Positions 40,106 to 53,389 of a stretch of DNA of 64,000 nucleotides are shown here, in pieces. The position numbers and the translations under genes are program-made. The notes under the pieces were generated by a model. The model did no database searches and was not told the DNA's origin. It saw only the letters and a program-made list of their open reading frames with translations. Numbering within the stretch: position 1 is the first letter of the stretch; every line of letters starts with the position of its first letter. The stretch lies in the IMG/VR virus record IMGVR_UViG_3300029305_004082; one strand, written 5' to 3'. The stretch is from a virus. Taxonomy: Duplodnaviria; Heunggongvirae; Uroviricota; Caudoviricetes.

Positions 40106-41272
40106 ATGAATTATGTAACTTATCATCTGCATAGCGACAGAAGCCTTTTGGATAGCTGTACGCATTATAAGGATTATATAGATAAGGCGGTTGAATTGGG
40201 ACAACCTGCTATTTGCTTTACTGAGCACGGAAGGGTCTTGAACTGGGTAGCAAAGAAATTGTATTGCGCTGAAAAGGGTATAAAGTATATCCATGGTGTT
40301 GAAATATACCTTACAGAAACATTGGAAGAAAAAGTGAGGGATAATTACCATACCATCCTGATTGCTAAAAACTATGAGGGTGTTAAGGAAATTAACTCTC
40401 TGCTGACTCTATCGGAGCAACCCGACCATTTTTACTATAAAAATAGAATTACCTTCGATGAATTCTTAAATATAAGCGATAACATAATAAGTACATCTGC
40501 CTGTTTGGCAGGACCACTTAATAAACTTCATATTAGTCATCCTTACTATGAAAGGTTAGCTGAAAAATATACCTACTATGAAATTCAGCCACACAACCAT
40601 CCTGAACAAATAGCGTATAATCAGCTTCTTAAAATGCTTGCAAGAAAATACCGCAAGTCGCTTATTGCAGGAACTGATACCCACAGTCTTAATGATTATA
40701 AAGCAGAGTGCCGGAGCATTTTGCAGAAAGCAAAGCATATTGCTTATGCCGACGAAGATAGTTTCGACCTAACTTATAAATCATACGACGAACTTGTTGA
40801 TGCGTTTAGGCGTCAGAATTGTTTTGAAGAAAATGTTTATATAGAAGCTATTGGAAACACAGTAGTAATGGCTGAAAGTGTAGAGGACTTTGAATTAGAT
40901 ACAACCTTCAAATACCCTATGCTTTATGGTTCTTATGAAAAGGACGCCGAGGTATATGAGAAAAGGGTTGCAGAAAAGTTTGCTGAAAAGGTTGAGGCAG
41001 GAGTTATTCCCCAAGACCAGATAATAAATTTCCAGAAAGCGATAGACGAAGAGAGCGCCGTATTTGAGCAAATAAACATGAAGGGCTTTATGCTTTCAAT
41101 GAGCGAGTTTGTTTGTTGGTGCAAGGAAAATGGTATTCCTATCGGGTATAACCGTGGTTCTTGCGGCGGCAGCCGAATTGCTTACATTCTGGATATAACG
41201 GACATGAATCCAGAAACTTGGCATACTGTTTTTTCTCGGTTTGCTAATAGCTCACGAAAAGAAATTGGGGAT
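40106..41272 (+). CDS. dnaE: DNA polymerase III alpha subunit (DnaE-type), exon 1 (PHP domain)
   Basis: HLHSDRSLLD...FTEHG (PHP); ends ...FSRFANSSRKEIGD, aligning with E. coli DnaE FERFLNPERVSMPD. Confidence 0.75.
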
Positions 41273-42452
41273 TAAAACTAACGTTTATCTAACAACTATG
41301 AGTAATCAAGAATACAAAATGACGATTTCAAAGTCAGAAATCATAAGAATACATCAAGAAGAATATATGAATGGGATAAGCACTACTAAACTCGGTAAAA
41401 AATACGAAGTAAGTAGCGCATATTTTTCGAGGTGGTTTAAGAAACTTGGGCTACCTGTAAGAAATAACTCGGATAAATCAAGGAAGTATGTTTTCAACGA
41501 AAACGTATTTGAAAAAATAGATACCGAGGAAAAGGCTTACTGGCTTGGTTTCCTATACGCCGATGGCTATATTATGTCTCGTAGAAAGAACGGTAATCCC
41601 AAGGTGGGGATTACGTTGAGCGTGAACGATATAGGTCATCTCGAAAAATTTAGAAAGTTTGTAAGTGGCGACATGCCTATTAAGATTTATAAGCCGTCAA
41701 AAAGTGGTTATGAAGGTTCTGGTGATTATTGCCGAATTTTAATAACAAGCGAAAAAATGGCGTCCGACCTTATAAGGCATGGTGTGTTAGAGCATAAAAC
41801 AAATGTGCTTAAACCACCTAAACTGCCGCCAACATTTATAAAACATTTTATACGTGGTTATTATGATGGGGACGGAAGTATCTGGTGTCAGTCGAATAAG
41901 AGCGGTAAAGACACTCAATATTCCGTGGGATTTGTTGGCACAAAAGACATGCTTGAATTTATACAGCAGGAGTTAATGAGCCGAAGAATTTTGACCCGTG
42001 AATATCCCATGAGCCGCCGCAGGCCAGATAGTGATGTGTTGCAGTGGAAGTTTGGCGGAAATAATATTGTTATTGATTATTTGATGTATTTGTATTCTGA
42101 TGCCTCAGTTTATTTAGAAAGGAAGCTTAGAAAAGCAGACGGTTTAAAAACGTTAGCATATAGTCGTTTATAGTGGAAACATTATAAATTATTAGGCGGT
42201 GAATTGCTGGAAACTCCTTAGAGCCGCACAAACCACAGCATAGCGGGAAACTGCAGGTGCGACGGTTAGAAAATTGTGCGGATTGGACAATCAGCAGCCG
42301 AGCTTCGTACAGAAGAAGGTTCAACGACTATCCGGCCACGGAGTAGGGGAGACCCGAAGTACCGCCCACCCTAACGTAAAGGCGAGGGTGAAGATATAGT
42401 CTATGCCCAACCTGCAGGTTGTTAAAGTACCGCGAAAGCGGGGGTACAACAG
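41273..42452 (+). mobile_element. group I self-splicing intron in dnaE
   Basis: Starts right after exon-1 terminal U with a TAA stop; ends in G before the exon-2 codon ATA; splicing gives ...RKEIGD|IDIDASPDDRDK..., collinear with DnaE PDFDVDF; 3' part contains GC-rich structured core (…TCAACGACTATCCGGCC…). Confidence 0.7.
41298..42173 (+). CDS. LAGLIDADG homing endonuclease encoded in the intron
   Basis: Two LAGLIDADG motifs: YWLGFLYADGYI and FIRGYYDGDGSI. Confidence 0.75.
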   Translation: MSNQEYKMTISKSEIIRIHQEEYMNGISTTKLGKKYEVSSAYFSRWFKKLGLPVRNNSDKSRKYVFNENVFEKIDTEEKAYWLGFLYADGYIMSRRKNGNPKVGITLSVNDIGHLEKFRKFVSGDMPIKIYKPSKSGYEGSGDYCRILITSEKMASDLIRHGVLEHKTNVLKPPKLPPTFIKHFIRGYYDGDGSIWCQSNKSGKDTQYSVGFVGTKDMLEFIQQELMSRRILTREYPMSRRRPDSDVLQWKFGGNNIVIDYLMYLYSDASVYLERKLRKADGLKTLAYSRL

Positions 42453-44408
42453 ATAGACATAGATGCGAGTCCTGATGATAGAGACAAGATTTATAAATAT
42501 ATAATTGACCGATTTGGTCAAGATAGAGCCGCTTACATACTGGCTATCGGAACCATTTCCGATAAAGGAACTATTGATGAAATCGGCAGAGCGTTAGCTG
42601 AACGTTGGAAAGACGAGCATGAGGGTACGTCCAACGAAATAAATCCATATTCATTAAAAGTTATAAAAGAAGTTAAGGCTTTGTATGAAACGGACGAAGA
42701 GGCGGCTCGTAAAAAGTATCCTGACATATTTTATTATTTTGACGGCATGGTTAATACGGCAATATCACAATCAATGCATCCCGCAGGAATCGTGGTTAGC
42801 CCTATTTCACTGCCTGATAATTATGGTTATTTAACCAAAGAAGATAAGTCAATCCTTCAGATTGATATGGAAGAGATTCACGAAATCAGTCTGGTTAAGT
42901 ACGACATTCTGGGATTGAAAAACGTACAGATTATCCGCGATTGTTGCAAATTGGCAGGAATACCTTATCCTAAATCGCACGAAATCAATTGGTGTGACGA
43001 GGCAGTTTGGACGGACATGCTACGTTCTCCTGTTGGTATTTTCCAGTTTGAAAGTGCTTTTGCTTTCCAGTCGCTATGTAAAATGAAACCTAAAAGCATA
43101 GAAGATATGTCTCTTGTAACGGCGGCAATAAGGCCGTCCGGTACATCATATCGAGACTCACTCTTGCGTAGGGAAATAAATAAAAATCCTTCAAAGATTA
43201 TTGACGACATGTTAGAGAAGAACCTTGGGTTCTTGGTGTATCAGGAAGATACTATTAAGTTTCTCCAAGAAGTGTGCGGACTTACTGGTAGTGAAGCTGA
43301 TAATATCCGCCGAGCCATCGGCAGAAAAGATAAGGAGAGGCTTGATAAAGCCTTGCCGCAAATTCTTGAAGGATATTGTTCCAAGTCAAGCAGCCCCAGA
43401 GAAGTAGCCGAGACAGAGGCAAAGGCGTTCTTGAAAATAATTGAGGATAGCGCTTCATATCAGTTTGGTTATAACCATTCGATTGGATACTGTCTTATTG
43501 GTTACACTTGTGCCTATCTTAGACATTATTATCCATACGAATTTATCACTGCGTTTCTCAACAATGCAGATAACGACGAAGATATAGCAAATGGAGCTTC
43601 GTTGTGTAGAGAGTACGGGATTAGGTTAACATCTCCCAGATTTGGTGTGTCCAGAGATAATTATACTTTTGATAAGAACGGCAAAATTATTGCGATGGGA
43701 GTCTCGGCAATTAAGTTCCTTAGCAAAAAGATTGCGAATCAGCTATACAAAACCTATCAGAACAATCGACTGGATACTTTTGTAGATGTTTTATATGCAA
43801 TTACAGAACAAACGGAGATTGATACGAGACAGCGTGACATTCTGATACACACAGACTATTTCGCAGAATTTGGCGAAATGGGGAAGCTTATTGAGGTTGC
43901 CAAGGCTTTTGATTATTTCAAGAGCGGGAAAGCAAAAAAGGTAAGCAAGGAAAAAGAATGCCCGTATATAAAATTTGTTGCCGCATACGGGAGCGACAAA
44001 AACGCAAAAGGCGCTGAGCTTAAGGCGTTTACAATTGCCGACTGCAAAGGGTTGCTTAAAGCTATAGAGCAGGATATTGCTGAGAGCGACAAGAATGTTA
44101 TTACATATGCCGACCGTGTAGCATGGCAAATGGAATATCTTAATTCTATACAGGGTTCTGGAAAACCCGAAGATAGATGGAAGATATATATTAAAGAACT
44201 TCGTCCTGCGTGTCGCAAGGCCGATGGCAGACAGTTCGGATACAACATAAACTACATTTCACTTGGTAGCGGTAAGTCCGGCACTGCAACGATATTTAAT
44301 AAAAATTTCAAGGAAGGAACAAAGGTTGGCTCCGTACTGCAGACTTCTCAGAGCGGGTGGTCTCGCAACGGTAAGTATTTCAACCTCGACAGATATAGTT
44401 TGATATGA
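42453..44408 (+). CDS. dnaE: DNA polymerase III alpha subunit (DnaE-type), exon 2
   Basis: Frame opens at 42426; IDIDASPDDRDKIYKYIIDRFGQDRAAYILAIGT... HPAGIVVSP ... matches the DnaE polymerase core. Confidence 0.7.
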   Translation: MDIDASPDDRDKIYKYIIDRFGQDRAAYILAIGTISDKGTIDEIGRALAERWKDEHEGTSNEINPYSLKVIKEVKALYETDEEAARKKYPDIFYYFDGMVNTAISQSMHPAGIVVSPISLPDNYGYLTKEDKSILQIDMEEIHEISLVKYDILGLKNVQIIRDCCKLAGIPYPKSHEINWCDEAVWTDMLRSPVGIFQFESAFAFQSLCKMKPKSIEDMSLVTAAIRPSGTSYRDSLLRREINKNPSKIIDDMLEKNLGFLVYQEDTIKFLQEVCGLTGSEADNIRRAIGRKDKERLDKALPQILEGYCSKSSSPREVAETEAKAFLKIIEDSASYQFGYNHSIGYCLIGYTCAYLRHYYPYEFITAFLNNADNDEDIANGASLCREYGIRLTSPRFGVSRDNYTFDKNGKIIAMGVSAIKFLSKKIANQLYKTYQNNRLDTFVDVLYAITEQTEIDTRQRDILIHTDYFAEFGEMGKLIEVAKAFDYFKSGKAKKVSKEKECPYIKFVAAYGSDKNAKGAELKAFTIADCKGLLKAIEQDIAESDKNVITYADRVAWQMEYLNSIQGSGKPEDRWKIYIKELRPACRKADGRQFGYNINYISLGSGKSGTATIFNKNFKEGTKVGSVLQTSQSGWSRNGKYFNLDRYSLI

Positions 44409-45200: not shown

Positions 45201-45371
45201 ATGAATTCAAAAGAACATTTTATAATTTCTATTATAAAGTCCGTGCTTCGTATTGCTGGTTGTCTTGTTGTTGCAGTCTGGGGCGAAGGCACCGTGTTCA
45301 GAACATTCGCCTATTTATTCTGTATGGCTGAAATGGCGGGTATTCTTGAAGAGGTGTTCGACGGGCGATGA
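45201..45371 (+). CDS. small membrane peptide (56 aa)
   Basis: RBS TGGAGGAAAAATG; hydrophobic core SVLRIAGCLVVAVWG. Confidence 0.4.
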   Translation: MNSKEHFIISIIKSVLRIAGCLVVAVWGEGTVFRTFAYLFCMAEMAGILEEVFDGR

Positions 45372-46579
45372 TAAAGATATTGTTCTGCGGTTTTCCATGT
45401 ACCAAATTCAGCATAGCCAATAACAAAGATAGAGAAACCCATCCTTGCAGTGGCGAAGGATGGGAGCTTTTTTACAACGGCCTTCTTGCCAAAGAAAAGT
45501 GGAAGCCCGACTATATACTGTTTGAAAACAACTACAGCATTGCGCAGCCGATAAAGGATGCCGTAAGCGAATGTCTCGGTGTTGGATATACTATGATTGA
45601 CTCTGCAAAGGTGTCGGCACAGCAGAGAAAGCGCTGTTACTGGACAAACTTTGATGTGCCTCAGCCCGAAGACAGAGGAATTCTTCTGCGTGACATTCTG
45701 GAAAGCGGTATTGTGGACCGAGAAAAGAGTTATGCCCTTAAACATCAGCAGGGAAATGCTCGTGATTATATCAAGAAGAACCACACTCAGGTAGCATTTG
45801 AGCCTATTCGTGTAGGTACAATAGAGAACGAAGCACAGCGTGAGGATTTCGACAGTAAACAGTACCGAGTTTACTCACCCGAAGGTAAAGCAACAACACT
45901 CTGCGGACAGGGTGGTGGCGTGGGAGCTAAAACAGGATTGTACGCCACTCCAATAAAGATGTTAACCGAAGGAGAAATGGATTATATGGTGCGTTCCCTG
46001 GCAGATGGACGCACTCATTTTGATTTTGGATATATACAGGACGCAACAAAGGATAAAGGAAAGTGTCTTACCGCCAATATCCACAAAGGTGTGCCATACA
46101 ACGTTTGCATTGAACGTGCTGATGGCACAATGACACCTGTTTATGAGGTGCGGGATGGAGCTATTAAGTATAAGGACATTTGGTATCCGATAAATCTGCC
46201 TGACGGTTATTACATCATCCGCAAGCTGACGGTGAATGAATGCCGGAGACTGCAGACTATACCTGATTGGTACAAGATGCCTGTGTCGGCAACACAGAGT
46301 TACAAGATGCTTGGCAACGGCTGGACAAATGAAGTAATAATGCACATCTTGAGTCAGATTCCCAATATCCAGAATGAAGAAATTGAGGTTCTGTCAATGT
46401 ATGACGGTATGGCCGGTGCCATGATTGCTCTGCGGGAACTCTGTTGTAACGTGGTGCGGTACGACGCATACGAAATAGATAAGTATTGTATCCAGACAGC
46501 AAAGGCAAATTTCCCCGAAATAATACATCACGGCGATGCATTTGAACTGCGGCGTGATGATTGGAGTTTAGATAGATAA
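45368..46579 (+). CDS. DNA (cytosine-5)-methyltransferase with apparently circularly permuted motif order
   Basis: Order along the protein: IV (ILFCGFPCTKFS), VI (ILFENNYSI), VIII (QQRKRCYW), TRD, IX (RKLTVNECRRLQTIPDWY), X (MLGNGWTNEV), then I (VLSMYDGMAG), II (YEIDKY), III (GDAFEL) at the C-terminus. Confidence 0.6.
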   Translation: MIKILFCGFPCTKFSIANNKDRETHPCSGEGWELFYNGLLAKEKWKPDYILFENNYSIAQPIKDAVSECLGVGYTMIDSAKVSAQQRKRCYWTNFDVPQPEDRGILLRDILESGIVDREKSYALKHQQGNARDYIKKNHTQVAFEPIRVGTIENEAQREDFDSKQYRVYSPEGKATTLCGQGGGVGAKTGLYATPIKMLTEGEMDYMVRSLADGRTHFDFGYIQDATKDKGKCLTANIHKGVPYNVCIERADGTMTPVYEVRDGAIKYKDIWYPINLPDGYYIIRKLTVNECRRLQTIPDWYKMPVSATQSYKMLGNGWTNEVIMHILSQIPNIQNEEIEVLSMYDGMAGAMIALRELCCNVVRYDAYEIDKYCIQTAKANFPEIIHHGDAFELRRDDWSLDR

Positions 46580-48482: not shown

Positions 48483-48965
48483 ATGGTTTATGTAAATGGT
48501 GATATTTTAACACCTGTTACAGATGACAGACCGACTATTGTTTGTCATCAGGTAAATTGCAAGGGTGTTATGGGGTCTGGGTTGGCAAAACAGGTGCGAG
48601 CAGAACTTCCTGGTGTATACGAGGTTTATAAGGAAAAGTGTGATGCGGGATTTGCTCGTTTGGGGCAGGTACAAGTATGTAGTGCCATACTCACCACTGG
48701 TTATTTGGTGGCGAATGTGTTTGGTCAGTGGGGATATGGCACAGAAAAACGTCATACGGACTATGAAGCTTTGCGTAATGCATTTACATATCTTGCAGAA
48801 GCATATTCCCAGTACACTATTCGAATTCCGTATAAGATGGGGTGCGGTCTTGGTGGTGGTGATTGGGAAATTGTTGAGTCAATCATTAAGGAAACTTTGT
48901 GCGATAAAGGCATAGAAGTTGAAATTTGGAGGTGTGATAGTAGAAGTGAGAGAAAGGCTGATTGA
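48483..48965 (+). CDS. macro-domain (ADP-ribose binding/processing) protein
   Basis: GDILTPVTDDRPTIVCHQVNCKGVMGSGLAKQV ... RIPYKMGCGLGGGDWEIV matches macro/Appr-1''-pase motifs. Confidence 0.6.
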   Translation: MVYVNGDILTPVTDDRPTIVCHQVNCKGVMGSGLAKQVRAELPGVYEVYKEKCDAGFARLGQVQVCSAILTTGYLVANVFGQWGYGTEKRHTDYEALRNAFTYLAEAYSQYTIRIPYKMGCGLGGGDWEIVESIIKETLCDKGIEVEIWRCDSRSERKAD

Positions 48966-49329: not shown

Positions 49330-49663
49330 TACCTATCATGCAGGAAACCAAAGTTACAGTTCTTCCACAAAAATAAACGCCGTCACAGGTGCGATTTTGA
49401 AGAATCATCCTAAGAGTTGGTTTGAAAGGTTTCACCTTGACAGTGAAAGAGCAAAAAAACTCATGGCAGAGGGCGGCTACAAAGGCAACAAAAGGGAACA
49501 CAGTTGGACAGACTCCAGAGGGTATGACTATTACCGCAATGTCGAAAACCCTGAAAACGCCATAACAATTTTGCAAATGGTTATATGCGGCGATATGGAA
49601 GTAATAGCCGAGTGTGTTTATACAAAGGATTATGAAGAGTCGGTTATAAAGGAGAGCATATGA
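49322..49663 (+). CDS. hypothetical protein
   Basis: 113-aa ORF. Confidence 0.4.
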   Translation: MFNTYHAGNQSYSSSTKINAVTGAILKNHPKSWFERFHLDSERAKKLMAEGGYKGNKREHSWTDSRGYDYYRNVENPENAITILQMVICGDMEVIAECVYTKDYEESVIKESI

Positions 49664-50010
49664 TTATTTCTGGAGCATTAACTTGTTCAAACTGCGGAGC
49701 TCCCATCAATAGGGCTACAATGACGTGCCCGTACTGTAAAACACAGTATTCGTTTCCAAACCCAGAAATAAAGAAGACGGTCATCAAGCCGGGGGTGCAT
49801 AGGATTTATACCCAAACAAAGGTATCAAATCAGGTAATTGCCGTAGCTCCCGAGGCGGCCAAAGATAAAACCCTCGCCCAACTGCGAGAACAACTTGCCG
49901 ATGCGTTGCTTGGCTACATGAAAATAACCACGGCAGAAGAGTGGGATTTTATGGGCGATTCAACCGTTTTTCGTGGCGAAGTAATAGTATTAGACCCTTG
50001 CCTCGAGTAA
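49660..50010 (+). CDS. zinc-ribbon protein (paralog of 3305..3679)
   Basis: CSNCGAPINRATMTCPYCKTQY. Confidence 0.45.
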   Translation: MIISGALTCSNCGAPINRATMTCPYCKTQYSFPNPEIKKTVIKPGVHRIYTQTKVSNQVIAVAPEAAKDKTLAQLREQLADALLGYMKITTAEEWDFMGDSTVFRGEVIVLDPCLE

Positions 50011-50018
50011 GGGTACAT

Positions 50019-50092
50019 TGCCCCATGGTGTAATGGAAGCACATCTGCCTTTGAAGCAGAAGGCCACCGGTCGGTACGGTGTGGGGCAGCCA
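50019..50092 (+). tRNA. tRNA-Gln (anticodon UUG); unusual T-loop
   Basis: Acceptor TGCCCCA/TGGGGCA, D-arm GTGTaatggaaGCAC, anticodon arm TCTGC-cTTTGaa-GCAGA, T-stem CACCG/CGGTG with loop GTCGGTA, G73 then CCA encoded. Confidence 0.6.
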
Positions 50093-50113
50093 TTTATTTT
50101 TTTGGAGGAAATT

Positions 50114-50320
50114 ATGACGAATTTAGAATGGATAAAAGGATTGTCCGTAGAAGAAATGGCAGAATTTTTAACTTACTACAGATGGATTTGTTCTGATTGT
50201 CCTGAAGATAAATTGGTATATTGTAGTTGGGAATGTGAAAAACATCGCCGCGAATGGCTGATGAAAGAGCATGAGATGCGTATAGGTTCAGAATTTGAAA
50301 AGGAATGGCTGCAGGAATGA
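50114..50320 (+). CDS. hypothetical protein
   Basis: Start MTNLEWIKG with RBS GGAGGAAATT (the longer ORF would overlap the tRNA). Confidence 0.4.
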   Translation: MTNLEWIKGLSVEEMAEFLTYYRWICSDCPEDKLVYCSWECEKHRREWLMKEHEMRIGSEFEKEWLQE

Positions 50321-50619
50321 TTACAGATATGGAAACTTTTATGATGGATGAAAGTGACCGCATATGGGGCTTTCATGTTTACCGCCGCATGTTCACACCG
50401 TATGAACAAGATGCGAAGTTTATAGATGAAAGCTACTACGAGAATGGAACAATTATAAGCTACGGCAAAATTGTTGAAGCCATTGACCTTGGCGGCGGCG
50501 AATGGTTGCTCGGTATAAGAGAGTGTTGGGATGAAGGTAAAGAAGAATTAGAATATTCCGACTTTATAACGTATTACATGCTGAGTGAATTAAGGTTGAT
50601 GGCCAAGGTGGAAGAGTAG
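50305..50619 (+). CDS. hypothetical protein (alternative start 50317)
   Basis: 104-aa ORF. Confidence 0.4.
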   Translation: MAAGMITDMETFMMDESDRIWGFHVYRRMFTPYEQDAKFIDESYYENGTIISYGKIVEAIDLGGGEWLLGIRECWDEGKEELEYSDFITYYMLSELRLMAKVEE

Positions 50620-50627
50620 TACAGTGG

Positions 50628-50710
50628 GCGGATGTGGTGGAACGGCATACACAGCAGACTTAAAATCTGCCGGCGAAAGCTTGCGGGTTCAAATCCCGCC
50701 ATCCGCACCA
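50628..50710 (+). tRNA. tRNA-Leu (anticodon UAA)
   Basis: Acceptor GCGGATG/CATCCGC, anticodon arm GCAGA-cTTAAaa-TCTGC, long variable arm, T-arm CGGGTTCAAATCCCG, A73 + CCA. Confidence 0.75.
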
Positions 50711-50713
50711 AAC

Positions 50714-50788
50714 GCTGGTGTAGCTCAATGGCAGAGCAACTGATTTGTAATCAGTAGGTTGTAGGTTCGACTCCTATCACCAGCTCCA
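50714..50788 (+). tRNA. tRNA-Thr (anticodon UGU)
   Basis: Acceptor GCTGGTG/CACCAGC, D-arm TAGCTCAATGGCAGAGCA, anticodon arm ACTGA-tTTGTaa-TCAGT, T-arm TAGGTTCGACTCCTA, CCA encoded. Confidence 0.75.
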
Positions 50789-51043
50789 AAAGGACGGTTC
50801 GATTCCGTCTCGTTGGCAGAGGACTGGCGTGAAGGGAGTAAGGTTCGATTCCTTATGAATGTGGTTTATTAAACCTATCTCTGGTGAGACAAACTGCTCC
50901 GATGGCTCGTCGGTTAAATTACAGTCGGAATACTGTAAGGGAGCACTAATTGGAGAGTGAGACTGGCTGTCATGGGTCGCTCCCAAAGAGAGGTTCGATT
51001 CCTCTGAGGTAATAATGTGGTTCGAATCCACCGCTCTCCACCA
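50789..51043 (+). ncRNA. tRNA-like array: four T-arm-like hairpins, the last ending in a tRNA-type acceptor 3' end (GCTCTCCACCA)
   Basis: GACGGTTCGATTCCGTC (50793), TAAGGTTCGATTCCTTA (50840), AGAGGTTCGATTCCTCT (50988), GTGGTTCGAATCCAC (51017); GGAGAGT (50952) can pair with GCTCTCC (51033); no canonical cloverleaf resolved by eye. Confidence 0.4.
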
Positions 51044-51517
51044 ACGGTTAAACTTCTGCGGCAAACTGTGAAGTCCCTTATGACACCGCATAGTAGAGTA
51101 GGTAAACATTGAGGTGTGTAGCCCGATAAAGACGGTATGGCGGACTTGGATTGTGCTGACGAGCACAAGTATTACGTGGCCCAACGAGTTAGGAGAAAAC
51201 CCTGCTGGCCATACGCGGTCCTAAAATTCCCTTGAGGTCAAGACTACATATCAATAGTCTGTGGAAACAAATCCGTAAGGTTGGTCGTGAGGCAAGTGCA
51301 CTGAGGTCGGCGAGCCTCTAAGTAACGACTGTGAAACAGCTTTGTGAGTTGGGCGTGACAACTACCAAACCAGCGGAATGAGTGGAAAGCTCATAACCCT
51401 ACTCTATTTTTCTACAACTCAGATAGAAAAAATTGCACAAAATAGACGACTTTGTGCTTCGTTTGATAACTTGGTCGTCTAAAACAGAAGAACCGAATTA
51501 GGAGGAATTTTACCCTA

Positions 51518-51682
51518 ATGACAAGGCGTGAAAAGATGGTTAAATGCATCGACGAAATTGAGAATGGCCAGATAAAACTGCAGGAACACGTACAGAATTA
51601 CGGCACAAGTGGTATGAGCGAATTATTGTATTGGTTGTGCGTAGGGATTAGGTTGATATTGGAAAAGGAGTTGAAATCATGA
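51518..51682 (+). CDS. small protein (54 aa)
   Basis: RBS TTAGGAGGAATTTT; below ORF-track cutoff. Confidence 0.35.
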   Translation: MTRREKMVKCIDEIENGQIKLQEHVQNYGTSGMSELLYWLCVGIRLILEKELKS

Positions 51683-52059
51683 CACCTGTAATTAACCCTT
51701 GGGTATTTTATTGGCTATCGGTTAGTGATGGCATAGGCGGCGTCCTTACAACGCTCCTGATAAGCTGCGGACTCATCACAATCTTTTTTATATTAAAAGG
51801 CTTTGCAGAGAAAGAAGATTGGCATGACGAGGAGAAAAGCAAGGAAACCTTTAAGCTTGCAAAGCGACTTGGCGTAATACTGGCAATCCTTATGGTTTTG
51901 GATGTCTTTATTCCCACCGCAGATACCATTACCAAAATGATAGTAGCACAAAACGTCACATACGAACGAGTAGAAACGGCAACCGATGTAGTACAAACAG
52001 TATATGAGGACATAATGGACTTGTTTGCGGAAGGAAAGGGAGAACAGCAAGCGGGGTGA
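51679..52059 (+). CDS. two-TM membrane protein (holin-like topology, unproven)
   Basis: Hydrophobic helices VFYWLSVSDGIGGVLTTLLISCGLITIFFIL and LGVILAILMVLDVFIP; RBS GGAAAAGGAG. Confidence 0.4.
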   Translation: MTPVINPWVFYWLSVSDGIGGVLTTLLISCGLITIFFILKGFAEKEDWHDEEKSKETFKLAKRLGVILAILMVLDVFIPTADTITKMIVAQNVTYERVETATDVVQTVYEDIMDLFAEGKGEQQAG

Positions 52060-52210
52060 TAACATGGGAAGAGTGGCTAATGAAGTCAGGAAAAAGACCT
52101 GGCTTCTTTTATATGAAGCAAGGAATACAAATGACCCCGAATATTTAAAAGCCATTATTCAGGAATGTACCAAATTGTTATTCAAATGTGCGGAAAGGAT
52201 AAACGAATAA

Positions 52211-53389
52211 ATGTACGAATATGAAAAAGCTTTGCTGAAAAAGAAGCTTGGCTCGTTTTATGAAACATTCAAAAAACATGATTGTTTCTTGGCCGGTGGA
52301 GCGATAAACAGTCTTTTTACCCATGCCGAAATAAATGATTACGACCTGTATTTCCGCAGTCAGCAAGACCTATATGGTTTTATGACAGAATCCCCGAGTT
52401 CAACTTGGATAATTGCGGATTCAGATAAGTCATTCACGGTGAATATGGGCGGACTTATTGTGCAGCCCATCTTTTTTAGATACTTTGACAACGCCGAACA
52501 GATATTTGAATCATTTGATTTTACCGTATGCATGGGCGCTTTTGATTTCCAGAAAGAAGAATTTGTGTTGCACGAAGACTTCCTCAAGGACATTGCGGCA
52601 AGGCGTTTAGTATTTAATCCTCGCACCGCATTCCCCATAATATCTGCGCTTCGTATCGCTAAGTACAAAGAGAAGGGGTACGAAATCGACAGGCGGCAGT
52701 TTATGCGGATTATGCTTACTGTATCTATGTTGAAGATTACCAGTCTGGAAATGTTGCGGCGGCATCTTGGTGGTATGTACGGCGAAAGCATTGAAGCGCA
52801 TATCAAGATTGACGAGAACGAACCTTTTAACCTCAATAAGATAATTGAGCGCATGGGAGAGTACACCGTCGAAGGAGACGAACGAGAAATACCTACAGTT
52901 TATTTCGAAGATGATTATGAGCTGTATGTAGCCAAGAGAATCGGCATGAAAATTCCCATTATCCAGATAGACAATAAATATTACACTCGCAACTCGACTG
53001 GACTGCGGCGGATAAAACCTGACGCCATAGACGAGAATTTTGTTCTGGATAGAGGTTTCACCGTAAATGAATTCCCAATGGTTAAGTATAAGTGTGTGAA
53101 GAAGATTGGCGATGGTCTGTATCGAAGCTTCTATGATTCCGATTTTGTGTACGAACTTGGACGTGTGGCTGAGGCAAAGAACTGCTATCACGGCCTGTAC
53201 ATGGTTGGCGAAAGTGGCAAGGAGACGTGTCAGTATAGTGATAAAGAGGGTGCCGTAATGCTGAAATTGCTTATTATGGACGCTCGCGATGTGACACCTC
53301 GTGGACTCGGTACTCTATTCCACGGCAGTACAACGGCAGACAGGGTGTACGTAATGGAAGAAATACCTATAAAGAAGGAGAGCGTATGA
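52211..53389 (+). CDS. Pol-beta-superfamily nucleotidyltransferase of the tRNA CCA-adding / poly(A) polymerase head-domain type
   Basis: CFLAGGAINSLFTHAEINDYDLYF ([G][GS]-x11-DxD) like class-II CCA-enzyme head (LVGGAVRD...DiD); third acidic residue in FDFTVCMG; RRLVFNPRTAFPIISALRIAKYKEKGYEID resembles the CCA-enzyme neck (R.LRA.RFA.+LGF.I). Confidence 0.5.
   Translation: MYEYEKALLKKKLGSFYETFKKHDCFLAGGAINSLFTHAEINDYDLYFRSQQDLYGFMTESPSSTWIIADSDKSFTVNMGGLIVQPIFFRYFDNAEQIFESFDFTVCMGAFDFQKEEFVLHEDFLKDIAARRLVFNPRTAFPIISALRIAKYKEKGYEIDRRQFMRIMLTVSMLKITSLEMLRRHLGGMYGESIEAHIKIDENEPFNLNKIIERMGEYTVEGDEREIPTVYFEDDYELYVAKRIGMKIPIIQIDNKYYTRNSTGLRRIKPDAIDENFVLDRGFTVNEFPMVKYKCVKKIGDGLYRSFYDSDFVYELGRVAEAKNCYHGLYMVGESGKETCQYSDKEGAVMLKLLIMDARDVTPRGLGTLFHGSTTADRVYVMEEIPIKKESV

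Follow-up and report, generated by a model that had tools for sequence, protein, structure and literature searches.

Directly behind a short cluster of transfer RNA (tRNA) genes in a phage of the class Caudoviricetes (IMG/VR record IMGVR_UViG_3300029305_004082; the 64,000-nt stretch that was analysed is called the window below), four hairpins resembling tRNA T-arms lie between positions 50789 and 51043, in DNA where no tRNA gene is called. What do these hairpins encode? A first-pass annotation of the window had taken them for one array of four equivalents, and had offered degenerate or fragmented tRNAs, non-canonical tRNAs with long variable arms, and tRNA mimics as possible readings. Our analysis instead divides them between two RNA families, unrelated to each other and not found together in other phages, which we call RNA-A (hairpins 1 and 2) and RNA-B (hairpins 3 and 4). 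Both are conserved in sequence, pair with compensatory changes, behave as cassettes and are absent from Rfam, and we regard it as very probable that they are real, non-decoding tRNA-mimic RNA genes. A specific role as competitors or decoys is, taken by itself, a tentative proposal; for the combined reading, two conserved non-decoding tRNA-mimic genes that act as competitors or decoys, we put the probability at about 0.55.

Four T-boxes that annotation tools do not resolve

The motif GGTTCGAWTCC occurs exactly four times in the window, each time on the plus strand (at 50796, 50842, 50992 and 51019), against an expectation of 0.08 from 100 dinucleotide shuffles, none of which reached four copies. 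Hairpin 1 (50793-50809, GACGG/CCGUC, with an additional G.U pair outside), hairpin 2 (50839-50855, UAAGG/CCUUA) and hairpin 3 (50989-51005, AGAGG/CCUCU) each have a 5-bp stem and a UUCGAUU loop, and the earlier description of perfect 17-nt T-arms holds for these three. It does not hold for hairpin 4 (51017-51031, GUGG/CCAC, UUCGAAU loop), which has only 4 bp, the fifth position being a U.C mismatch (51016/51032). The proposed pairing of the acceptor-like GCUCUCC-A-CCA (51033-51043) with an upstream GGAGAGU was confirmed: 50952-50958 pairs with 51033-51039 through 7 bp, one of which is U.G.

ARAGORN reported only tRNA-Gln (50019-50092), tRNA-Leu (50628-50710) and tRNA-Thr (50714-50788) in the window, all upstream of the hairpins, with no tRNA call within 50789-51043 and no transfer-messenger RNA (tmRNA) anywhere in the window. 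Searching Rfam 15 over 50789-51043 gave nothing above threshold, and the Rfam tRNA model (RF00005) had no match there even at E up to 10, so the expectation that the hairpins would not resolve into ordinary tRNAs was borne out by both tools. The best Rfam match in this interval was tRNA-Sec (RF01852; 20.6 bits against a gathering threshold of 47, E = 0.19-0.86), in which only the acceptor stem and T-arm were aligned, and a permuted-tmRNA model reached 14.1 bits while covering the tRNA-Leu/Thr junction only. GOLLD (RF01998) and ROOL (RF03087), large ornate RNAs that often occur near phage tRNAs, gave no match at E up to 10 over 49500-52500 or 50780-51450 and none window-wide at the gathering threshold. 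We found no convincing open reading frame (ORF) between 50789 and 51517.

RNA-B is a class-II-shaped RNA with two T-arms and no anticodon arm

Because their T-boxes are only 16 nt apart, hairpins 3 and 4 cannot derive from neighbouring tRNAs and are parts of one gene. RNA-B occupies 50952-51043 on the plus strand, is 92 nt long and has A73-CCA encoded. Its tRNA-Ser-type acceptor 5' strand (GGAGAGU, 50952-50958) is followed by a mini D-arm (GAC UGGCU GUC, 50961-50971), by a stub hairpin without an anticodon loop at the anticodon-arm position (UGGG UCGCU CCCA, 50973-50985), by hairpin 3 as an extra T-arm at the variable-arm position, by a conserved single-stranded linker (GAGGUAAUAAU, 51006-51016; family consensus nUGG(A/U)UAAU), by hairpin 4 as the true T-arm, and by the acceptor 3' strand GCUCUCC with discriminator A and CCA. 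The minimum-energy fold, which makes up 55% of the ensemble, is a five-way junction of acceptor, mini D-arm, 4-bp stub, T-arm 1, 11-nt linker and T-arm 2, and its thermodynamic z against shuffled sequence is -1.9. At its acceptor end RNA-B has what a tRNA has, namely a 7-bp acceptor stem adjoining a T-stem with a UUCRANY loop, a discriminator and CCA, all with covarying helices. An anticodon arm (5-bp stem, 7-nt loop, U33, purine 37) is missing: a hairpin of 4 bp with a loop of 5 nt takes its place in the window copy, and the only 7-nt loop on offer is the T-loop copy, which has U at position 37. The pair 3:70 in the window copy is A-U, not G3.U70. RNA-B is thus a class-II-tRNA topology in which the anticodon arm is cut to a stub and a T-arm replica stands at the variable-arm position. 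The earlier suggestion of a non-canonical tRNA with a long variable arm came near the truth for hairpins 3 and 4, which take a class-II shape with a T-arm at the variable-arm position. We also considered a T-box-style pairing of the linker UGGN with the RNA's own NCCA end and dropped it, as N does not covary with the discriminator (judged by eye).

Relatives were collected by scanning viral contigs with the pattern GGTTCGATTCC-N6-30-GGTTCGAATCC, which gave 78 loci. Loci with a gap of 26-29 nt between the two T-boxes mostly consist of a tRNA or tmRNA 3' end with a duplicated or foreign fragment behind it, as at an integration site. Those with a gap of 12-22 nt form a coherent family of 23 non-redundant viral loci sharing one layout, from 5' to 3': a 7-nt strand, about 2 nt, a small hairpin whose loop contains UGG, a variable hairpin, T-arm 1, nUGG(A/U)UAAU, T-arm 2 and the complementary 7-nt strand. 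The 5' acceptor strand was picked in each locus by best complementarity, and a control with shuffled 3' strands was run for that choice: a perfect 7/7 complement is present in 12 of the 23 loci, against 11.8% for the shuffled strands.

A MAFFT alignment of 16 members was out of register at the 5' end, and covariation was assessed instead by anchored counting and on an eight-sequence seed alignment in register at all anchors. In this alignment 97% of the cells are paired, 13 of 17 pairs are compensatory and all seven acceptor pairs vary on both sides. With the partners slid, 34-49% of the cells pair. Of 500 shuffles, none attained the observed percentage paired or covariation score, and two attained 13 compensatory pairs. 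The covariance model built from the seed, R1, scores about 25 RNA-B members at 33-82 bits and ordinary tRNAs at no more than 27; members outside the seed score 33-60 bits, and the window copy reaches 73.6 bits (E = 1.3e-23), a value that is partly circular because this copy belongs to the seed. Folded without constraints, 8 of 15 members have the five-way junction as their minimum-energy structure.

An equivalent of the mini D-arm is found in most members, with stems that differ and covary and with UGG kept in the loop. The extra arm still varies as a T-loop in members that were not selected by pattern (GGUUCAAGUCC, GGUUCGAGUCC, GGUUCGAAUCC). Stub hairpins have 4-6 bp and loops of 3-10 nt, and their loops fall into two classes, a GACG tetraloop or the self-complementary GCGCGC; the latter is found in L045, L060, L016, L051 and L135, five others have GACG, and the window copy has UCGCU. 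GCGCGC is also the kissing-loop sequence of the dimerisation site of human immunodeficiency virus 1 (HIV-1), and it suggests possible loop-loop homodimers. Members lie in phage tRNA arrays with tRNA-gene-like spacing; some stand alone between protein-coding genes (L035, L065, L009, L046), and T-runs follow several, as for stand-alone genes.

The RNA-B signature is nearly phage-specific, with 7 matches in 596 Gb of bacterial and archaeal genomes. The strongest of these lies on a phage-like 10-kb contig with 18 tRNAs, and at the Streptococcus locus L134 a second T-arm adjoins a truncated tRNA-Phe, an arrangement that resembles an integration junction. With R1 we could also examine whether the four hairpins are repeats of one unit. 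The model finds a single full copy; hairpin 2 is matched only as an isolated arm (13.7 bits), and hairpin 1 joins only with the T-arm of tRNA-Thr (20.2 bits), and the idea was rejected.

Other loci contain further tRNA-like arrangements. In five of them (L026, L040, L064, L010, L063) a tRNA scaffold has a normal Leu-type D-arm, and a T-arm-like hairpin and a UGG segment take the place of the anticodon loop; these five form a looser anticodon-less tRNA-like group, thematically related to RNA-B. On the IMG/VR contigs L067 and L008 the insert in a tRNA anticodon loop itself resembles a complete tRNA, L067 being tRNA-Asn-like outside and tRNA-Cys-like inside. In L094, L102, L104, L112 and L118, different tRNAs are directly followed by a conserved stretch some 65 nt long that comprises a hairpin, UGGUUAAU, a T-arm and ACCAAGC-U-CCA, for which we found no matching 5' acceptor strand and which may be a tRNA 3' half or another tRNA-like RNA.

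RNA-A is a twin-T-arm RNA without an acceptor stem

RNA-A (50789-50947, plus strand) begins right after the CCA of the preceding tRNA; the part common to relatives ends at 50944, giving about 156 nt. T-arm a (GGACGG UUCGAUU CCGUCU, 50792-50810), which contains hairpin 1, is followed by a conserved 29-nt linker with D-loop-like UGG motifs (UCGnUGGnnGAGGnCUGGyGnGAAGGGAG, 50810-50838) and by T-arm b, which is hairpin 2 and whose pairs covary with 4-6 pair types. Within the linker, GGCAG (50815-50819) is the 5' strand of a long-range helix with CUGCU (50894-50898), all five pairs of which change on both sides. Between T-arm b and the 3' strand of this helix lie a variable hairpin (GGUUU AUU AAACC, 50863-50875), seen in the sequence and the alignment and differing in length between members, and a mini D-arm-like hairpin (CUC UGGU GAG, 50879-50888, then ACAAA) that is invariant in all five full-length members. 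Beyond it come a hairpin with a UGGC-type loop (CCGAUG GCU CGUCGG, 50899-50913, then conserved UUAAA; three of six pairs change on both sides) and a 7-bp hairpin with an invariant CGGAAU loop (50919-50938; seven of seven pairs compensatory), followed by the tail GGGAGC (50939-50944). RNA-A has no acceptor stem. A weak match to the Rfam psbNH motif (window 50912-50971; 22 bits against a gathering threshold of 45, E = 0.009) overlaps UUAAA and the CGGAAU hairpin.

A scan for two GGTTCGATTCC boxes 28-45 nt apart returned at least 119 loci. Among the matches listed, the gap between boxes peaks sharply at exactly 35 nt (23 of 78 non-redundant loci), and the loci with this gap carry a linker nearly identical to that of the window. 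At least 28 non-redundant viral contigs with RNA-A cores are present among the fetched loci, and a subset of the cores keeps all the downstream elements of the window copy: the variable hairpin, CUC-UGGU-GAG with ACAAA, the UGGC-type hairpin, UUAAA, the CGGAAU hairpin and a GGGnGCAA tail. The window copy has the features that define the family, with two GGUUCGAUUCC boxes about 35 nt apart, the linker, CUC-UGGU-GAG, the long-range helix and the CGGAAU hairpin all found within 50789-50944.

RNAalifold on the five full-length members gave 35 pairs, of which 21 are compensatory, with the long-range helix enclosing T-arm b. In the controls, 96% of cells were paired against 42-48% with slid partners, and the observed values were attained in 0 of 500 shuffles. 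In a comparison of 17 cores the stems of both T-arms covary and the linker is conserved in sequence without a covarying partner, which points to a tertiary or protein contact. Searching ten member loci against Rfam returned ordinary tRNAs only. A tRNA immediately precedes about 10 of the 28 cores, an ORF starts shortly downstream of many, and, judging by eye from translations, RNA-A tends to adjoin replication or recombination genes.

Conservation with compensatory changes across very different phages does not fit the earlier option that the hairpins are degenerate or fragmented tRNAs, and the label of tRNA mimic proved the best description of RNA-A and RNA-B alike. Three other readings of the RNA-A part were dropped: 50817-50884 as a degenerate RNA-B paralogue, as hairpins 1 and 2 form a family of their own; a closing helix UGCUCC/GGAGCA for the 3' domain, as RNAalifold and covariation favour 50815-50819 with 50894-50898; and a CCAACGA 7-mer at 51182 as a split or permuted partner of hairpin 1, as the relative L130 keeps hairpin 1 at 100% identity without the block containing that 7-mer. 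A third kind of double-T-box locus (L158, L205, L222) also has a 35-nt gap, with another conserved linker (GGAUGGGGnUUGGGG...CCCGG).

The RNA island is a mosaic of cassettes

Using the adjacent Gad2-family protein and a 54-aa ORF of identical sequence, we retrieved 15 loci from close relatives, which share 92-98% identity with the window in their flanks. The island starts with tRNA-Leu(UAA) (Rfam tRNA, 60.4 bits), and tRNA-Thr(UGU) (74.8 bits) is an optional cassette. In L128, L129, L141, L145 and L146, tRNA-Leu is followed straight by sequence corresponding to about 51433 of the window. L140, L148 and L149 have tRNA-Leu, tRNA-Thr and RNA-A (L130 starts within tRNA-Thr), and in L142 and L147, which lack tRNA-Thr, RNA-A directly follows tRNA-Leu. 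L144 has tRNA-Leu, tRNA-Thr, RNA-A and a 270-nt block, L143 has an intron-split tRNA-Leu and the 270-nt block, and the window alone has everything including RNA-B. RNA-A (50789-50944) always moves as a single unit (L130, L140, L142, L144, L147-149), and RNA-B with a 7-nt leader (50945-51043) is an exact insertion relative to L130. Each cassette starts immediately after the CCA of the preceding element. The island is a recombination mosaic whose junctions lie at CCA ends and within tRNA sequence, and tRNA-Thr, RNA-A and RNA-B are independent presence/absence cassettes among close relatives. A functional pairing of RNA-A with RNA-B was rejected, given that the two do not co-occur elsewhere.

The locus L143 (positions 1723-2526; European Nucleotide Archive ERZ27317341, k141_470913) had been considered as an alternative RNA cassette and turned out to be a tRNA-Leu(UAA) with a group I intron (RF00028, 39.8 bits, E = 1.7e-8) that interrupts it at the anticodon. 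An HNH endonuclease is encoded within this intron, and the exons give the matching acceptor strands GCUGAGG and CCUCAGC-A-CCA. By analogy with the gene-conversion role of SegB in the T4 tRNA cluster, this endonuclease is a plausible driver of local gene conversion. A serine recombinase is encoded 8 kb away from the island.

Downstream of RNA-B, the 270-nt block (window 51103-51372; also in L143 and L144) interrupts a terminator-like hairpin in its loop; this hairpin, which has its arms at 51093-51102 and 51398-51407 and a T-run at 51407-51411, is intact in L130, L140, L142 and L147-149. The block has no Rfam match, no convincing ORF and no thermodynamic signal, and the stretch 51044-51432 has a folding z of -0.02.

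The neighbouring genes and the putative CCA-adding enzyme

The first-pass annotation had linked the hairpins to a CCA-adding-type enzyme encoded at 52211-53389, an assignment that fails. The query itself has no Pfam match in our local library; among the matches listed, 120 of 120 homologues carry PF26128, named Gad2, and membership of the tRNA nucleotidyltransferase/poly(A) polymerase family was rejected for that reason. By homology, we assign the ORF to the Gad2 (anti-Gabija) family, for which an activity on RNA ends is conceivable. Gad2 is described, in bioRxiv 10.1101/2023.05.01.538930, as a protein of about 400 aa, experimentally shown to inhibit Gabija, with an AlphaFold-predicted nucleotidyltransferase domain. 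That predicted fold probably explains the earlier impression of a CCA-adding enzyme. Relatives lacking RNA-B, RNA-A or both retain Gad2, and we therefore see no evidence for a functional link between Gad2 and the RNAs.

The island lies in a hypervariable stretch of small ORFs, the set of which differs even among near-identical relatives; a 197-aa ORF, for instance, is present in L140 and L147-149 and absent from the window. The genes flanking it are accessory: a C5 cytosine methylase (45368-46579), a Macro-domain protein (48483-48965) and Gad2, a neighbourhood of anti-defence type. Further upstream, a group I intron (RF00028, 87.1 bits; window 42144-42423) separates ORFs 40106-41275 (PHP and NTPase domains) and 42681-44408 (finger and HhH domains), which together make up a DNA polymerase III alpha subunit; the replicative polymerase gene appears to be intron-split.

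What the two RNAs may do

Both RNAs would be co-transcribed with the tRNAs: all elements lie on one strand, and the terminator-like hairpin with its T-run follows at 51093-51411, compact in the relatives. The tRNA maturation machinery would then release and stabilise them, as for the bacterial Y RNA YrlA, with RNase P cleaving at the acceptor/T minihelix, trimming of the 3' end back to CCA, and modification of the T-loops by TrmA and TruB. Once mature, they would present tRNA elbows and an acceptor end (CCA in RNA-B) in trans to factors that recognise tRNA shape. Each T-arm of RNA-A is accompanied by D-loop-like UGG segments. Elbows and an acceptor end offered without codon reading would make them competitors or decoys for a host factor of this kind, for which a tRNA-directed defence or toxin enzyme is, by analogy, the most attractive candidate. 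The decoy or sponge role raised in the first-pass annotation is therefore a plausible one.

Several points weigh against this interpretation. The decoy role is argued from association and analogy, and a promoter scan stayed at background level, so that no promoter was assigned. Both families were collected with patterns that fix the T-box sequence, and T-loop conservation is for that reason partly built in. The RNA-A structure comes from five sequences and was derived from the same alignment that scored it; the whole RNA folds no better than shuffled sequence (z = 0.08), so the case for it is a comparative one. RNA-B acceptor stems differ widely among members, with all four discriminator bases and no preference for G1, which argues against one common aminoacyl-tRNA synthetase or one sequence-specific partner. 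We found no recurrent protein neighbour or partner for either RNA among the member loci, and BLAST of 13 RNA-B members and two member loci against deposited phage genomes matched only the flanking tRNAs, which leaves both families without a cultured carrier. With neither a conserved partner nor a cultured carrier, nothing points to a specific target.

Function in cis would account for part of the same evidence. If the RNAs exist mainly as RNase P and RNase Z targets that cut a polycistron or protect its ends, like t-elements or the mascRNA on MALAT1, with no function in trans, then it makes sense that cassettes start exactly after a preceding CCA, that RNA-B offers a canonical acceptor/T minihelix, which is the RNase P determinant, that about 10 of 28 RNA-A cores follow a tRNA and many precede an ORF, and that some RNA-B genes stand between protein genes. 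A single tRNA-like unit would be enough for this purpose, however, and an ordinary tRNA would serve; the second T-arm, the linkers, the GACG and GCGCGC loop classes and the invariant 29-nt linker and CGGAAU loop of RNA-A are left unexplained, and the T-runs behind several RNA-B genes resemble those of stand-alone genes. We consider such a processing or punctuation role unlikely as the main explanation. The debris of DNA-level events, whether tRNA pseudogenes, leftovers of T-box recombination or tRNA 3'-end copies at attachment (att) sites, would suit a mosaic with junctions at CCA ends and inside tRNA, a relative with an HNH homing endonuclease at this place, and the nearby serine recombinase, and a separate class of double-T loci (L011, L022 and Streptococcus L134) does consist of duplicated tRNA/tmRNA 3' ends or truncated tRNAs. 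These true att-type loci look different from 50789-51043, though, where none of the four hairpins repeats a neighbouring tRNA 3' end and all differ from the T-arms of tRNA-Gln, tRNA-Leu and tRNA-Thr. Whole units are conserved with compensatory changes, including a 5' acceptor strand and helices for which an att site has no need, and the linkers are conserved in sequence, so that debris is a very improbable account.

Two further alternatives concern RNA-B and start from its acceptor. GGAGAG begins 7 of 85 tRNA-Ser genes and none of 1,276 others (1,361 non-redundant tRNAs in the fetched loci), and one phage tRNA-Ser begins with the identical 7-mer GGAGAGU. Seryl-, leucyl- and alanyl-tRNA synthetases (SerRS, LeuRS, AlaRS) do not depend on the anticodon, SerRS reading the acceptor stem and the long variable arm. 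Charging of the window copy is a live possibility, because its acceptor is of Ser type and SerRS ignores the anticodon. RNA-B might then be a chargeable non-decoding tRNA (by SerRS here), which would donate its aminoacyl group to reactions other than translation or would act as a sponge that binds the synthetase or a tRNA-Ser-specific toxin; the class II layout, the 5-bp arm at the variable-arm position and the encoded CCA agree with this, and the RNA-B copies of L135 and L016 carry G3.U70, the alanine identity pair. What makes it an improbable explanation of RNA-B is that the discriminator of the window copy is A73 and not G73, the typical tRNA-Ser discriminator, that an 11-nt single strand separates the supposed variable arm from the T-arm, unlike in tRNA-Ser, that the acceptor stems and discriminators of other members are unrelated, and that no aminoacyl-tRNA-dependent transferase was found among the scanned neighbouring genes. 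ARAGORN goes a step further and labels three family members tRNA-Ser(CGA), because it takes the T-arm 1 loop U-U-CGA-U-U for an anticodon loop; hairpin 3 would be the anticodon arm, with U33 in its loop, the 11-nt linker would be the variable region, and the acceptor of the window copy would fit. The window copy itself is recognised by neither ARAGORN nor the Rfam tRNA model, position 37 would be U, and the arm agrees with the T-arm consensus at 11 of 11 positions and varies as T-loops do, not in the pattern of anticodons. An extra hairpin would also stand between the D-arm and this arm, other members have acceptor stems that are not of Ser type and show no G1 preference, and UCG is the rarest Ser codon in the phage (7.7% of Ser codons, 0.45% of all codons). 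A genuine decoding tRNA-Ser(CGA) is accordingly hardly credible.

Two conserved non-decoding tRNA mimics acting as competitors or decoys are thus the explanation that we prefer. In a bolder form, which we consider speculative and unlikely as it stands, RNA-A and RNA-B would be the first of a class of anti-defence RNAs: anticodon-less decoys corresponding to the top half of a tRNA, with two elbows each, swapped as cassettes and soaking up effectors that recognise tRNA shape. Candidate effectors would be the acceptor-end nucleotidyltransferase or pyrophosphokinase toxins of the AbiE/MenT and CapRel types, nucleases acting on the T-loop or acceptor stem, and tRNA-processing enzymes; in one variant, the tRNA-Ser-type RNA-B would mimic class II tRNA-Ser, the preferred substrate of some such toxins.

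The finding is more than a larger tRNA cluster. T4 species 1 and 2 were reportedly described about fifty years ago, and tRNA-like stable RNAs in phage tRNA clusters are said to have been unexplained since. Two sharply defined families, widespread among phages and without an Rfam family, are missed by ARAGORN or read as tRNA-Ser(CGA), and since three family members were so labelled, some phage tRNA-Ser(CGA) annotations are likely RNA-B-type RNAs. Near-isogenic phage variants with or without each cassette make the function of non-decoding tRNA look-alikes directly testable. If they are decoys for tRNA-directed immunity or toxins, phage counter-defence would gain an RNA-based branch; should they turn out to be something else, such as processing modules or aminoacyl carriers, the known range of tRNA mimicry would still be extended.

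Comparison with known systems

RNA-B resembles class II tRNAs (Ser, Leu, Tyr) in its five-arm topology, 7-bp acceptor, GG in the D-loop, arm at the variable position, T-arm, discriminator and CCA. It differs from them in having only a stub for an anticodon arm, a complete copy of a T-arm at the variable position, 8-11 nt of additional conserved single strand ahead of the real T-arm, and a D-arm of 3-5 bp with a loop of 3-6 nt; the Rfam tRNA model misses the window copy, and ARAGORN misses or mislabels members. With the tRNA-like domain of tmRNA it shares an acceptor and T-arm, a stem-poor D-loop analogue and the lack of an anticodon, and its 5' segment NN-(U)CUGG-U resembles the Escherichia coli tmRNA sequence AU-UCUGG-AUUCGAC. 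A phage-encoded tmRNA occurs in the same type of array (L047). Unlike tmRNA, RNA-B is about 90 nt long and has no tag reading frame or pseudoknots, and the window copy lacks G3.U70.

RNA-A recalls YrlA, a non-decoding tRNA mimic whose tRNA-like domain is, according to PMC4201824, permuted, with a T-arm, an acceptor-like hairpin and a D-arm closed by a helix. A comparable succession of elements appears in the inner module of RNA-A (50839-50855, 50863-50875 and 50879-50888, closed by 50815-50819/50894-50898). RNA-A differs in having two T-arms and further hairpins, and we identified no Ro-binding stem motif in it. The YrlA model (RF02553, gathering threshold 69 bits) had no match within 50780-51450; its sole sub-threshold match (27.4 bits, 50660-50767) consists of the tRNA-Leu T-arm and the tRNA-Thr D-arm, a dimeric-tRNA pattern that PMC4201824 lists as a known false positive. 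No Ro60/TROVE domain was found in eight neighbouring ORFs or in the nine large ORFs of the window, a scan that did not include ORFs under 380 aa elsewhere in the window.

Like both RNAs, T4 rnaC and rnaD (species 1 and 2) are small and lie at the end of a phage tRNA cluster; they are stable RNAs. The end of rnaC (L126 1409-1547; record 70908-71046), with UAAUAA, CCGGG UUCGAAU CCCGG and an 8-nt acceptor-like tail, is reminiscent of the 3' third of RNA-B, although the sequences share no detectable similarity; rnaC has a single T-arm and no clear 7-bp acceptor pairing that we could find, and rnaD is without a T-box. The t-elements of plant mitochondria are tRNA-like processing signals, a concept that comes from PMC1920247. 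Together with mascRNA they are acceptor/T-arm mimics at which RNase P and RNase Z define RNA ends, with no anticodon function; they differ from RNA-A and RNA-B in being eukaryotic (organellar or nuclear) and in consisting of one tRNA-like unit each, in which the T-arm is not duplicated and a conserved linker is lacking. Our literature search found no description of the RNA-A or RNA-B architecture. Set beside these systems, RNA-A and RNA-B are two families of phage tRNA mimics without an Rfam family, conserved across phages of very different base composition.

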